This document shows, in pieces, positions 37,844-40,302 of a stretch of 43,087 bases of DNA (its first letter is position 1; the number at the start of each line of letters is the position of its first letter). Both the position numbers and the translations under genes were made by a program. Below the pieces are notes generated by a model, which did not search any database, was not told the DNA's origin, and worked only from the letters and a program-made list of their open reading frames with translations. The DNA comes from an uncultured Candidatus Saccharibacteria bacterium (lineage in GTDB: Bacteria; Patescibacteriota; Saccharimonadia; Saccharimonadales; CAYVSP01). Where the stretch lies: NCBI GenBank assembly GCA_964446365.1, contig CAYUOI010000001.1, positions 1 to 43,087 on the forward strand. Direction: 5' to 3'.

Positions 37844-37928
37844 GCGGATGTGGTGGAATTGGTAGACACGCTAGGTTTAGGACCTAGTGCCGCAAGGCGT
37901 GAAGGTTCAAGTCCTTTCATCCGCACCA
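37844..37928 (+). tRNA. tRNA-Leu (anticodon UAG), class II with a long variable arm and encoded CCA
   Basis: I folded the cloverleaf by hand. The acceptor stem is GCGGATG/CATCCGC. The anticodon stem CTAGG/CCTAG carries loop TTTAGGA. A 15-nt variable arm is present, and the T arm is GAAGG-TTCAAGT-CCTTT. The discriminator A is followed by CCA. Confidence 0.93.
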
Positions 37929-37948
37929 ATATACAACGAAACTAAAAA

Positions 37949-38059
37949 TTATTCTGCGTCTTTGCGAAGACGGGCTTCGCGGACAACAAATGAAATTAAA
38001 ATAGCTACTGTCGCGCCTATCCCGGCGGCCACCAACTGATTTATATCTGCGGGAGTCAT
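37949..38059 (-). CDS. candidate 36-aa single-TM peptide (absent from the ORF track)
   Basis: It encodes MTPADINQLVAAGIGATVAILISFVVREARLRKDAE. On the minus strand it has an extended -10, TGTTATAAT (38091-38099), and an AAGG Shine-Dalgarno (38066-38069) 6 nt before the ATG at 38059. Two overlapping hairpins lie at its 3' end (37957-37980). Confidence 0.4.
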   Translation of the reverse strand: MTPADINQLVAAGIGATVAILISFVVREARLRKDAE

Positions 38060-38138
38060 TTCTAACCTTTATTTTTTAAAACGTAACCATATTATAACAC
38101 AAGCGCATTGAGCTCTGGTAGAGACTTCTGAGGAATAG

Positions 38139-38166
38139 TTGACAATAGTACTAGTTATGCTAAAGT
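38139..38166 (+). promoter_or_regulatory. strong sigma-70-type promoter of the his leader
   Basis: TTGACA (38139-38144), a 16-nt spacer, then TAAAGT (38161-38166), preceded by TGc (an extended -10). Confidence 0.65.
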
Positions 38167-38173
38167 AATCTTT

Positions 38174-38230
38174 ATGGTTTATTTAACTAACCAGCATCAT
38201 CTGCATATATTGCCGGAGCATGTCGGTTAG
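38174..38230 (+). CDS. candidate leaderless His-codon leader peptide (18 codons)
   Basis: It encodes MVYLTNQHHLHILPEHVG. The ATG lies 7 nt after the -10 hexamer. CAT codons occur at 38195, 38198, 38204 and 38219. Confidence 0.45.
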   Translation: MVYLTNQHHLHILPEHVG

Positions 38231-38256
38231 TTAAGTATTGTCTTTTTAAAACATTA

Positions 38257-38284
38257 CGCCGGACATCGCTCCGGCGATTTTTTT
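38257..38284 (+). terminator. intrinsic terminator in the hisG-hisS leader
   Basis: CGCCGGA (38257-38263) pairs perfectly with TCCGGCG (38270-38276), giving a 7-bp stem with a 6-nt loop. One A and then T7 (38278-38284) follow. Confidence 0.8.
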
Positions 38285-38312
38285 AGTATTTTTTGTAATT
38301 AAGGAGAAAGAA

Positions 38313-38916
38313 ATGAATCCAGAAATTTTTAAAAAAGCAGAACGAGTCTTAATTCCTAAGGGACGTGACTTGAAAATAGTACTAGAGTGGATAGCCCTAC
38401 AGGGTTTTGAGCCGCCAATGGCACCTACGGAAGATCGGAGGTCACTTCACCCAGCTTGTTGATAAAAAGCTGTATGCGTTTGTGAAATCTGCAGATATAC
38501 GGGAAATGTTGTTCCGACACTACGCTGAAATTGGATTTATTGGCTCAGACAAATTAAGAGAAGCTAAGCTCAGCGGAAAAGGTGATACCTATGAGAATGA
38601 ACCAATCGCCGATGCCGCCTGTACTATGGTTGAAGCTTCCAGGTGCAAAGATGGCCTTACGCCGTATTCTAGAGTAGCAAGTAGCTATCCGTTTACGGCG
38701 CGTGAATACATGTGGAATCTGCCGGGCCCGCCGCTGCGACCAATACCAAATATAGTATTCGAACCGAGCGGATCTGTAGAAGCATTTGTGGAGCTTGGAA
38801 TAGCCGATGGCATAATCGATGTACGGGAAACTGGGCAAACACTCGAAGATAACGGAATTACGTACTATAAAGAAATAATGCCTATAACCACCAACATAGT
38901 TTGGCGAAATGGTTAA
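38313..38916 (+). pseudogene. hisG: short-form ATP phosphoribosyltransferase (HisG-S) interrupted by a +1 frame change
   Basis: A 49-codon ORF (38313-38462) follows an AAGGAG Shine-Dalgarno at 38301-38306 and encodes the HisG N-terminus (RVLIPKGRDLKIVLEWI). The rest is in the +1 frame (open from 38395, listed ORF 38407-38916). That part carries EIGFIGSDKL, RVASSYPFTAREY and the HisG signature EAFVELGIADGIIDVRETGQTL. Confidence 0.75.
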
Positions 38917-38936
38917 TGTTAGAATGGAGAAAAGCA

Positions 38937-40244
38937 ATGGCACTATCAACACAACCATATAAAGGCGCTCGTGATTTCTATCCGGAAGACGAGCGGCTAC
39001 AAAAGTACATCTTTGCCAAGTGGCGCGAAGTCTGCGAGCGCTATGGCTATGAAGAGTACGACGCGCCTATTTTGGAACCGACAGAACTATATTTAAGCAA
39101 AGGTAATGAAGAGATCATTAAAGAGCAAACGTATAGCTTCGAAGATCGCGGTGGGCGGCAGGTAACGCTGCGTACGGAGATGACGCCAACGGTAAGCCGG
39201 ATGGTGGCCGGTCGGCGTCAGGAGCTGGGCTATCCGTTGCGATTGTATTCAATACCGCAGTGCTGGCGCTACGAACGCCCACAGCGTGGGCGAGGTCGCG
39301 AATTCTACCAGCTAAACGTCGATCTATTTGGCGTTGAAGGTATTCAGGCCGAGTACGAAATAATCTCTAACGCCGACGCCGTCATGGTCGCTTTTGGCGC
39401 CAAGCGCAACATGTACGCCATTAAGCTCAATAGCCGCAAACTTGTCGACTACGTAATGCGGACATGGCTAGGACTCGATGAAGCGCAAACCGCGCCAGTC
39501 ATACGGTTAATAGATCGCATCGATAAAATTGAGCGCACTGAGTTTTCGAGCAAGCTTGATGCAATATTAACACCTGCGCAACGGACGAATAAGACTGAAG
39601 AGCGTTTGATGGCATTTCTAGACGTGCAAAAGCTTGAAGATTTGCCCGCCGACTTGCAAAAGTTTGATTCGGCGACTGAACTGCGCGAACTGATGCAGGC
39701 ACTTACAGAAGATGGCGTCAACAACATCGTTTTTGAGGCCTCACTAATGCGCGGTTTTGATTACTATACCGATATAGTTTTTGAGGTCTTTGATACGAGT
39801 CCAGAAAATAATCGTTCTATGTTTGGCGGAGGTCGCTACGATGGTTTGGTAGAAGCATTCGGTGCCGAGGCAGTCCCAACCGTGGGCTACGGAATGGGCG
39901 ATATACCGCTGACGAATTTTCTAGAGACACACCAGCTTAGTCCAGACTTGCGTCCAGAGACTGATCTATACGTAATTGCGATCGGTAATTTTTATAGGCC
40001 GGTCCAAAAAATTGCTAATGAACTTCGCGAAATGGGTGTCAATGTTGCCGTCGACACCACTGGCCGGAAGACGGATAAGCAAATTAAGACGGCGGTCAAA
40101 AAAGACATTCGCTACGCACTGTTCGTCGGCGAAGAAGAGCTAACCAGTAAACAGTATCGTCTCAAGGATTTGAAGACAGGCGCAGAAGAAACAATTGATT
40201 TAGAAGGTATCGCGGCTACGCTAAAAGACTTTCGACGTTCATAA
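38937..40244 (+). CDS. hisS: histidine--tRNA ligase
   Basis: 435 aa from ATG 38937, with GGAGAA 7 nt upstream. It has YKGARDFYPED, motif 2 RYERPQRGRGREFYQLNVDLFG, motif 3 GGGRYDGL, and a C-terminal anticodon-binding domain. Confidence 0.93.
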   Translation: MALSTQPYKGARDFYPEDERLQKYIFAKWREVCERYGYEEYDAPILEPTELYLSKGNEEIIKEQTYSFEDRGGRQVTLRTEMTPTVSRMVAGRRQELGYPLRLYSIPQCWRYERPQRGRGREFYQLNVDLFGVEGIQAEYEIISNADAVMVAFGAKRNMYAIKLNSRKLVDYVMRTWLGLDEAQTAPVIRLIDRIDKIERTEFSSKLDAILTPAQRTNKTEERLMAFLDVQKLEDLPADLQKFDSATELRELMQALTEDGVNNIVFEASLMRGFDYYTDIVFEVFDTSPENNRSMFGGGRYDGLVEAFGAEAVPTVGYGMGDIPLTNFLETHQLSPDLRPETDLYVIAIGNFYRPVQKIANELREMGVNVAVDTTGRKTDKQIKTAVKKDIRYALFVGEEELTSKQYRLKDLKTGAEETIDLEGIAATLKDFRRS

Positions 40245-40302
40245 CAGAAATTGTGCTGGTGGTTCTAGCGCAACTTCTTTAGATCTGTTAAAATAATCTT
40301 TC

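Follow-up and report, generated by a model that had tools for sequence, protein, structure and literature searches.

The leader region upstream of hisG-hisS

The 43,087-nt stretch of DNA analysed here (the window) carries a split hisG gene followed by hisS, the gene for histidine--tRNA ligase, and the segment ahead of these genes, at 38139-38284 on the same (plus) strand, has the layout of a leader-peptide transcription attenuator. The segment begins with a sigma-70-type promoter with an extended -10 element (38139-38166), in which TTGACA (38139-38144) is separated by a 16-nt spacer, ending in TGc with the TG at 38158-38159, from the -10 box TAAAGT (38161-38166). Seven nucleotides past this box, the ATG at 38174 opens a probably leaderless open reading frame (ORF) of 18 codons, MVYLTNQHHLHILPEHVG, which extends to 38230 with its stop codon. 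Codons are numbered here backwards from the stop (-1, -2 and so on); three of the His codons thus occupy positions -11 (38195-38197), -10 (38198-38200) and -8 (38204-38206). An intrinsic terminator lies at 38257-38284, with CGCCGGA (38257-38263) pairing to TCCGGCG (38270-38276) around the loop CATCGC, followed by an A and seven T residues. The hairpin, of -13.1 kcal/mol, was also found by a terminator scan, and a promoter scan returned the promoter as the top-scoring promoter-like site near the element; few sites in the last 7 kb of the window match the consensus as well as these two signals. Beyond the terminator, a Shine-Dalgarno (SD) sequence, AAGGAG (38301-38306), precedes the ATG of hisG at 38313. 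The frame-0 part of hisG reaches the Leu codon CTT at 38445-38447 (38301-38447 with its SD), and the part in the +1 frame runs from ACC at 38449 to TAA at 38914-38916 (38449-38916; Pfam HisG, 8e-21). The hisS gene (38937-40244) has an SD of its own (GGAG, 38926-38929), and its product scores 347.9 bits against TIGR00442 (cut-off 286.75).

An initial annotation had proposed a histidine attenuator at this place, and on re-reading the sequence every element that it listed was found at its coordinates, including the near-consensus promoter; the hisG +1 frameshift, described further below, was absent from it. Its Gram-positive framing has to be given up: the nearest relatives of the window HisS (56-70% identity) all come from metagenome-assembled genomes of Saccharibacteria (TM7, Patescibacteria), and the host is a member of this group, part of the Candidate Phyla Radiation (CPR), not a Gram-positive firmicute. 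No public assembly queried for the exact window HisS sequence contained it. The reported lack of a T-box agrees with our search of Rfam, the His_leader (RF00514) and T-box models included, which gave no match anywhere in the window at gathering score, nor any in the interval 37900-38500 at E <= 10.

To gather relatives, Saccharibacteria hisS loci were screened for the leader with a simple pattern (22 of 81 loci positive), and metagenomes were scanned with the pattern GCCGGAG-N5-CGGTTAG-N{20,50}-ACGCCGG, which specifies neither an ATG nor a His codon. The metagenome scan yielded 78 loci, about 64 of them genuine leaders and about 14 apparent chance matches, as expected. Leaders from genomes and metagenomes were pooled into a comparative set of 81 distinct sequences, on which the counts below are based unless a subset is named; energies from RNAduplex, hairpin energies and constrained folds were calculated for 20 genome-derived leaders. 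Of the 81 genome loci, about 40 have a match to a covariance model built from the 81 leaders, R1; each match lies upstream of hisS and in its orientation. In the window R1 matches once (104 bits). R1 is now usable for annotating the element.

The short ORF is a constant feature of the set. Its length varies between 17 and 20 codons, with 18 codons in 53 of 81 leaders, and the ORF, its length and its His codons persist even in divergent leaders, as does the spacing to the promoter. A TAnnnT box is found 4-10 nt 5' of the leader ATG in 72 of 81 sequences and at 6-7 nt in 55, which indicates that the ORF is probably leaderless, as had been suspected from the window; a -35 box with at least four of six matches is present in 53. 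Histidine is encoded at position -8 in 80 leaders, at -10 in 70 and at -11 in 63, both CAT and CAC being used, and codon -9, flanked by conserved His codons, varies freely (L, S, V, A, T, I). Figures from the metagenome subset are similar: His is encoded at -8 by 61/61 leaders, at -10 by 54/61 and at -11 by 55/61; between codons -12 and -7 this subset has 172 His codons in frame, whereas the other two frames have 9 and 4. The peptide varies freely over its N-terminal half. Stop codons are TAG (79) or TAA (2), and a stop is retained even where TAA disrupts the pairing of the helix P1 described below. The information content of the leader alignment tracks codon periodicity. Thus, the leader ORF and three of the four His codons recognized initially are borne out by the relatives. 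The fourth (38219-38221) is not: it is mostly Arg or Leu in other leaders and falls within the covarying segment of the antiterminator.

Promoter geometry of the same kind recurs in the window. A TAnnnT box stands 6-9 nt before the start codon of many genes (for example those at 1941, 14757, 16395, 24378, 27857, 33651, 34433, 40303 and 41660), in agreement with the initial remark on leaderless-type starts, and a recognizable SD was found for only about one-third of the window genes. Leaderless mRNAs seem to be common in this genome.

In five cases (L113, L072 2925, L021 1967, L024 1796 and L027 2904) the His-sensor ORF forms the C-terminal tail of a larger protein. The tail, of the form HH-x-H followed by the stop, is attached to a protein of about 100 aa that matches Pfam Trp_repressor (1.4e-13) and belongs, like the histidine repressor HisR, to the TrpR/YerC family. 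In these relatives the attenuator contains the end of a complete regulator gene; L113 is a genuine leader variant.

Three helices predicted to compete

The minimum free energy (MFE) fold of 38174-38290 consists of a large hairpin, P1, and the terminator. Its energy of -37.2 kcal/mol compares with -20.6 +/- 3.4 kcal/mol for shuffled sequences (z = -4.96), none of 200 shuffles being as good. P1 (38180-38237) has arms of 13 bp, 38180-38192 and 38225-38237, the 5' arm spanning the T-N-Q codons and the 3' arm holding the stop codon. It includes the 10-bp helix (38183-38192 with 38225-38234) to which the initial annotation could assign no clear role; the helix is present, extends further than was reported and is conserved as an anti-antiterminator hairpin. 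The terminator stem is paired at 97.9% in the 81 sequences, with compensatory changes between A-U and G-C, and P1 is conserved with G-U pairs and compensatory changes. Taken together, P1 and the terminator are paired at 85.0%, against at most 43.3% in controls where the arms were slid, and they show 62 double-sided cells against 35.8 +/- 5 after shuffling (0/500 as high). Cognate P1 arms bind each other better than non-cognate arms (0/5000 permutations as good). The predicted P1 is the equivalent of the 1:2 helix of the trp attenuator.

The third structure joins the leader ORF to the terminator. The segment 38210-38227, which comprises the codons L-P-E-H-V-G, is a near reverse complement of the whole terminator hairpin, and RNAduplex pairs it to 38257-38278, the shared 3' half, through 18 paired bases at -29.6 kcal/mol. 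This antiterminator engages both arms and the loop of the terminator hairpin. The 8-bp alternative helix of the initial annotation, GCCGGAGC (38212-38219) with 38268-38275, is indeed complementary; it is only a part of this duplex of about 18 bp, and as a complete antiterminator it was rejected, since by itself it would be a weak competitor of the neighbouring 7-bp terminator. The extended duplex is competitive throughout: in 20/20 leaders its energy lies between -23 and -30 kcal/mol, against -11 to -16 kcal/mol for the terminator hairpins.

Covariation between the leader and the terminator is found in the same pairing. Cognate leader/terminator pairs average -25.95 kcal/mol and non-cognate pairs -22.98 kcal/mol (0/20000 permutations as good). 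Covariation links leader positions -8 to -5 to terminator positions a10 to a7, loop bases included, with 68% paired against 53% when permuted (0/5000 as high), and it is the variable leader positions that pair with the end of the terminator 5' arm and with loop bases. Several pair types alternate at a single place: GC 31, AU 14 and CG 8 at lead-6:a8; UA 25, AU 12 and GC 8 at lead-7:a9. Scored on alignment A3, the antiterminator is paired at 87.8%, against at most 46.6% with slid partners, and has 31 double-sided cells against 13.8 +/- 3.1 in shuffles. In the divergent leaders L010, L052, L063 and L064, the CCGGAG box and the terminator arms are altered jointly and H-x-H is kept; these sequences still follow the design in which the leader is the reverse complement of the terminator. 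Leaders with a changed CCGGAG box and terminator also keep the leaderless geometry.

A different local hairpin, GCCGG/TCGGT, was discarded. RNAalifold, run on the first MAFFT alignment, returned only the terminator and this small hairpin, whose bases are invariant and without covariation and which is incompatible with P1.

Ribosome position and the fate of the terminator

The effect of a translating ribosome was simulated in silico by constrained folding of RNAs cut at the end of the terminator stem. With the ribosome at the stop codon, the terminator is part of the MFE structure in 20/20 leaders. With codon -10 in the A site, the antiterminator forms in 20/20, whatever footprint is assumed. 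For codon -8 the result varies with the 3' edge of the ribosome, the antiterminator forming in 20, 17 or 6 of 20 leaders for edges at +11, +13 and +15. In the window, blocking the P1 5' arm gives the antiterminator (-31.2 kcal/mol), and masking 38210-38242 leaves the terminator. These simulations agree with the ribosome-position model of the initial annotation.

We propose that 38139-38284 functions as a ribosome-mediated transcription attenuator that would sense charged tRNA-His and gate transcription of hisG-hisS. From the promoter geometry, we infer a transcription start at or next to the A of the ATG at 38174, so that the leader ORF would have no 5' untranslated region. The nascent RNA could then adopt three competing structures: P1, the terminator and the antiterminator of about 18 bp. 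With ample His-tRNA, the ribosome would reach the stop codon at 38228 and cover 38213-38240, blocking the antiterminator; the terminator would fold and transcription would end. After release of the ribosome, P1 would lock this off state. When His-tRNA is scarce, the ribosome would stall as one of the His codons -11, -10 and -8 occupies its A site, covering the P1 5' arm and leaving 38210-38227 free to capture the terminator sequence as it emerges, and RNA polymerase would read through. Since the stop codon lies inside the antiterminator-forming segment, a terminating ribosome would force termination and a stalled one would allow read-through. We consider it highly probable that this attenuation mechanism operates.

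Several observations weigh against this model or narrow it. The most conserved His codon, -8, gives the antiterminator in only 6/20 leaders when the footprint is extended to +15; thus, sensing may rest mainly on -10 and -11. Without a ribosome, the antiterminator is the MFE structure in 14/20 leaders, P1 plus the terminator being so in the remaining 6, the window included. It follows that the off state depends on kinetics, through a ribosome dwelling at the stop codon or through early folding of P1, and that the role of P1 would be kinetic in those 14. The number of His codons is low, 1-4 per leader and usually 3, against 7 in enterobacterial hisL, and four of the 81 leaders have a single one. 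In the main family, CCGGAG (Pro-Glu) and GGT (Gly) are invariant, and therefore constraint on the RNA and constraint on the peptide are inseparable at these bases. Finally, the relatives are not independent, and shared ancestry inflates the permutation and covariation counts; the several independent pair types nevertheless argue for a real constraint.

The invariant residues and the need for a dwell at the stop are also what a TnaC-like arrest peptide would produce. Here the motif H-x-H-x-x-P-E-x-x-G would sense free histidine in the exit tunnel and hold the ribosome at the stop codon, so that the antiterminator is masked and transcription ends; the histidines would matter as residues and not as codons that report tRNA charging. 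The invariance of P, E and G (81/81 each in the main family) and the simulated outcome of a ribosome held at the stop fit this idea. However, the N-terminal half of the peptide is unconstrained, the divergent leaders replace the C-terminal residues (LPLRVG, SPRRAG, SLRLIG, SPGSAR, LPA, TPA) and keep H-x-H, and pairing with the terminator accounts for the invariant CCGGAG and GG, which change together with it in divergent lineages. We regard an arrest peptide as highly improbable. Equally to be weighed is an attenuator worked by RNA alone or by a factor, in which a protein, a tRNA or a small molecule would choose between terminator and antiterminator and the ORF would be incidental. Conservation and covariation of all three helices do not depend on translation of the ORF, and some relatives encode a TrpR/YerC(HisR)-like protein immediately upstream. 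Against this stand the coding signatures (the fixed distance between ATG and -10 box, whole-codon length variation, TAG/TAA and CAT/CAC interchanges, the variable codon -9), the location of the His codons outside the covarying helices, and the lack of any Rfam match, T-box and known leaders included, at gathering score or at E <= 10. Such a device seems to us exceedingly improbable. Chance, which the initial annotation had kept in play in view of only four His codons in the window leader, would make the region an ordinary terminator or hairpin with a short ORF beside it. The fold statistics given above, the recurrence of the arrangement in 81 distinct sequences, the position-specific conservation of His and the restriction of R1 matches to the coding strand ahead of hisS operons speak otherwise, and by these comparative data the chance reading is already refuted. 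Altogether, the interpretation as a histidine attenuator is supported, with an amended model of the competing structures.

The split hisG gene and its candidate frameshift cassette

The hisG gene of the window is divided between frame 0 (38313-38462) and frame +1 (38407-38916). The frame-0 translation, MNPEIFKKAERVLIPKGRD...EDRRSL, is homologous to the HisG N-terminus. Where the frames must be joined lies a candidate programmed +1 frameshift cassette (38436-38462): cGGAGG (38436-38441), TCA, the Leu codon CTT (38445-38447) and the His codon CAC (38448-38450), after which frame 0 ends at TGA (38460-38462). All relatives that have this type of hisG show the split at the identical codon. Residues 12-196 of the joined protein align in one stretch to positions 3-182 of the 183 in TIGR00070, and it aligns gap-free to an unshifted Saccharibacteria HisG (L081), with R-K-L-S in the latter against R-C-L-T and the junction between L and T.

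A total of 28 distinct sites, in HisG and in unrelated proteins, share the consensus GGGAGG-TGT/TCA-CTT-CAY. The P-site codon is CTT in 27/28 and GTT in one, the +1 codon is always TTC, and the A-site codon encodes His in 28/28 (CAC 14, CAT 14). Within the SD-like box, positions -9 to -4 read G18, G22, G20, A23, G25 and G18 of 28, and the box is kept though the residues that it encodes vary (RR, GR, KE, AR). Frame 0 ends 3-20 codons past the site and the +1 frame stays open for 100-320 codons. The one deviation in the P site, at L134 1206 (GGGAGG-TCA-GTT-CAT), places a Val codon there, which would still slip to TTC.

Cassettes are present in type-I phosphoribosyltransferase-like genes unrelated to hisG (L048 322, L091 1712, L117 800) and in three unknown proteins (L055 2524, L148 720, L027 3287); in L029 2553 the cassette lies in a 27-codon N-terminal extension of an otherwise in-frame hisG. 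Non-HisG cassettes occur in the first gene after a His leader, and although their +1 residue is free of HisG constraint the A-site codon is still His. Every cassette for which upstream sequence is available sits behind a His leader. The cassette looks portable.

We envisage that full-length HisG would require a tRNA-Leu to slip from CUU to UUC (38445-38448), with stimulation from the SD-like GGAGG that lies 3 nt before CUU, and that this slip would compete with decoding of the His codon CAC in the A site; a shortage of His-tRNA would then favour HisG synthesis. We regard a programmed +1 frameshift in hisG as very highly probable. A response of the frameshift to histidine is a more modest claim, which we somewhat favour; that the cassette constitutes a natural "hungry-codon" switch, by which HisG and the other cassette proteins rise when His-tRNA is scarce, tips just to the favourable side. 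The complete two-layer statement, an attenuator combined with a histidine-linked hisG frameshift, we judge quite probable.

The split could also be without regulatory meaning, either through decay or sequencing error or because a constitutive shift of fixed ratio is indifferent to histidine. Two features of the CAY codon weigh against reading its conservation as a histidine signal. Its C, at +3, optimises re-pairing of tRNA-Leu(GAG) on UUC, and AY suits the Thr/Ile found in HisG, so that part of the His-codon conservation in the HisG cases could have other causes. The joined HisG also scores 73.3 bits, below the TIGR00070 cut-off of 75.75. Decay or error is nevertheless very unlikely, with 28 distinct sites in independent assemblies interrupted at the same codon, intact ORFs on both sides and an SD-like box conserved at the prfB spacing despite varying residues, and a hisG pseudogene or a sequencing error was ruled out on the strength of these sites. 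As for an indifferent shift, the A-site His is found in all 28 cassettes, at least five of them in contexts unrelated to HisG, and each cassette that can be traced upstream follows a His leader. Nor does the protein itself impose the shift, since the phylum also contains hisG genes without it (L081, L022). On balance, a non-regulatory split is unlikely.

We considered, and dropped, the idea that translation of a separate C-terminal HisG begins from the internal SD-like box: the +1 frame has no start codon within a workable distance, and the GTG in GGTGTC is out of frame. A dedicated slippery role for tRNA-Leu(UAG), encoded at 37844-37928 on the leader strand and at the same place in about 38 of 60 related loci, was also rejected, since the gene is present in loci without a frameshift gene as well and is better explained by conserved gene order; rsmD, the tRNA-Leu gene and the hisS operon probably form such a conserved order. 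A tRNA-Leu is the slipping tRNA of the cassette, and tRNA-Leu(GAG) is present in at least one relative (L085).

According to a 2016 recoding review by Atkins and colleagues (PMC5009743), no natural starvation-specific hungry-codon frameshifting with a trans-frame protein was known. Our literature search on hisG frameshifting, on frameshifting in Patescibacteria and on Saccharibacteria hisS found no relevant paper in the collection covered. The hisG cassette may be the first frameshift switch in nature to sense an amino acid. If histidine-responsive, it would answer an open point of the recoding field and provide a short, portable amino-acid sensor, and one operon would read the histidine signal twice, in transcription and in decoding. 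The frameshifted hisG genes should not be called pseudogenes, as gene callers would label them.

Gene context and known systems

The match between the sensed amino acid and the genes downstream, noted initially for hisG-hisS of the window, extends to histidine-related genes in nearly every locus. In almost all loci with enough sequence, hisS is separated from the leader by 0-3 genes. Among the intervening genes are hisG, hisG-hisE fusions joining HisG to a phosphoribosyl-ATP pyrophosphatase domain (L007, L026, L046, L065), hisI (L020, L022, L116, L119, L138), hisD (L022, L081), a hisH-like class-I amidotransferase gene (L100, L136), a type-I phosphoribosyltransferase-like gene and several peptidase or unknown genes. 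The unshifted hisG genes (L081, L155, L022) are those with hisD following. Saccharibacteria thus carry scattered pieces of the histidine pathway adjoining hisS.

Upstream of the leader in the window lie an rsmD-like methyltransferase gene and the tRNA-Leu(UAG) gene; downstream of hisS are tig and clpP. An ORF of 36 codons, MTPADINQLVAAGIGATVAILISFVVREARLRKDAE, is found on the minus strand between the tRNA-Leu gene and the leader promoter (37949-38059). The predicted product is hydrophobic at its core and has no match in Pfam; a small membrane protein is one possibility, a meaningless ORF the other. A 9-bp hairpin directly after the hisS stop (40251-40273), followed by a weak T-rich tract, may be the operon terminator, ahead of a leaderless-looking tig start.

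In its architecture, the leader resembles enterobacterial trpL and hisL (RF00514). There too the amino acid under control is specified within a short ORF whose stop codon falls in the stretch that makes the antiterminator, and competition is of the 1:2 / 2:3 / 3:4 type, corresponding here to P1, antiterminator and terminator. The element from Saccharibacteria differs from both in having no sequence or covariance-model similarity to them, in an antiterminator that pairs with both terminator arms and the loop, and in its main target, an aminoacyl-tRNA synthetase gene with only fragments of the his pathway visible nearby. Its leader ORF is leaderless and has its one to four His codons arranged as H-H-x-H, against seven in a row in hisL. 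Control of a synthetase operon by a leader peptide has a parallel in pheM-pheST of E. coli, an attenuator that senses the cognate charged tRNA; the amino acid is a different one, the leader ORF is SD-led and the sequence is unrelated.

Few His codons are also found in cases predicted outside Proteobacteria. In bacilli, Naville & Gautheret (2010, PMC2965389) predicted His leader peptides before hisZ and before a hisS paralogue; some his operons of Firmicutes have predicted leader peptides with 3-5 His codons (PMC9413887). These share with our element the order of a His-codon ORF, then terminator and antiterminator hairpins, before hisS/hisZ-family or his genes, and a similarly low number of His codons. 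The patescibacterial element differs in being leaderless and no sequence relationship was found; the cases in bacilli and Firmicutes are also predictions. A leaderless arrangement is known from mycobacteria, where leaderless polycysteine short ORFs are reported to act as Cys-responsive attenuators (bioRxiv 10.1101/834739; PMC4633059). The Cys ORFs likewise stand at the transcript 5' end as the first cistron and are enriched in codons of the regulated amino acid; phylum and amino acid differ, and the His element has a canonical intrinsic terminator and a covarying antiterminator. With the T-box, the usual control of hisS in Firmicutes, the element shares its expected output, more hisS transcription when tRNA-His is uncharged, and its readout through terminator against antiterminator. 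It differs in the way of sensing, which would be through the ribosome here and is by direct binding of tRNA to RNA in the T-box.

The hisG cassette is closest in design to prfB, the gene for release factor 2 (RF2), whose site reads AGGGGG-UAU-CUU-UGA-C. Both have CUU in the P site, an SD-like box and a 3-nt spacing, and in both frame 0 ends shortly after the site and a functional protein needs the shift. Yeast Ty1 (CUU-AGG-C) offers a second likeness, in that the A-site codon would have to be decoded slowly, like the hungry AGG. Where prfB has a stop and Ty1 a rare-tRNA codon in the A site, the cassette has a sense codon for His, and what is sensed would thus be His-tRNA and not RF2. The hisG cassette never has the stop UGA in this place (His in 28/28), so it would work like prfB without being a prfB site, and unlike prfB its type of cassette is found in several unrelated genes.

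In conclusion, the predicted leader is an unrelated new member among the leader-peptide attenuators, in a new phylum, and it is unusual in starting leaderless and in having an antiterminator that captures the hairpin as a whole. Attenuation via a leader peptide would thereby extend to the Patescibacteria (CPR), a large, mostly uncultured group with reduced genomes whose gene regulation is almost unknown, and control of an aminoacyl-tRNA synthetase would be achieved there without a T-box. The element combines a leaderless ORF, a three-codon sensor and capture of the entire terminator hairpin in a compact case with clear covariation.

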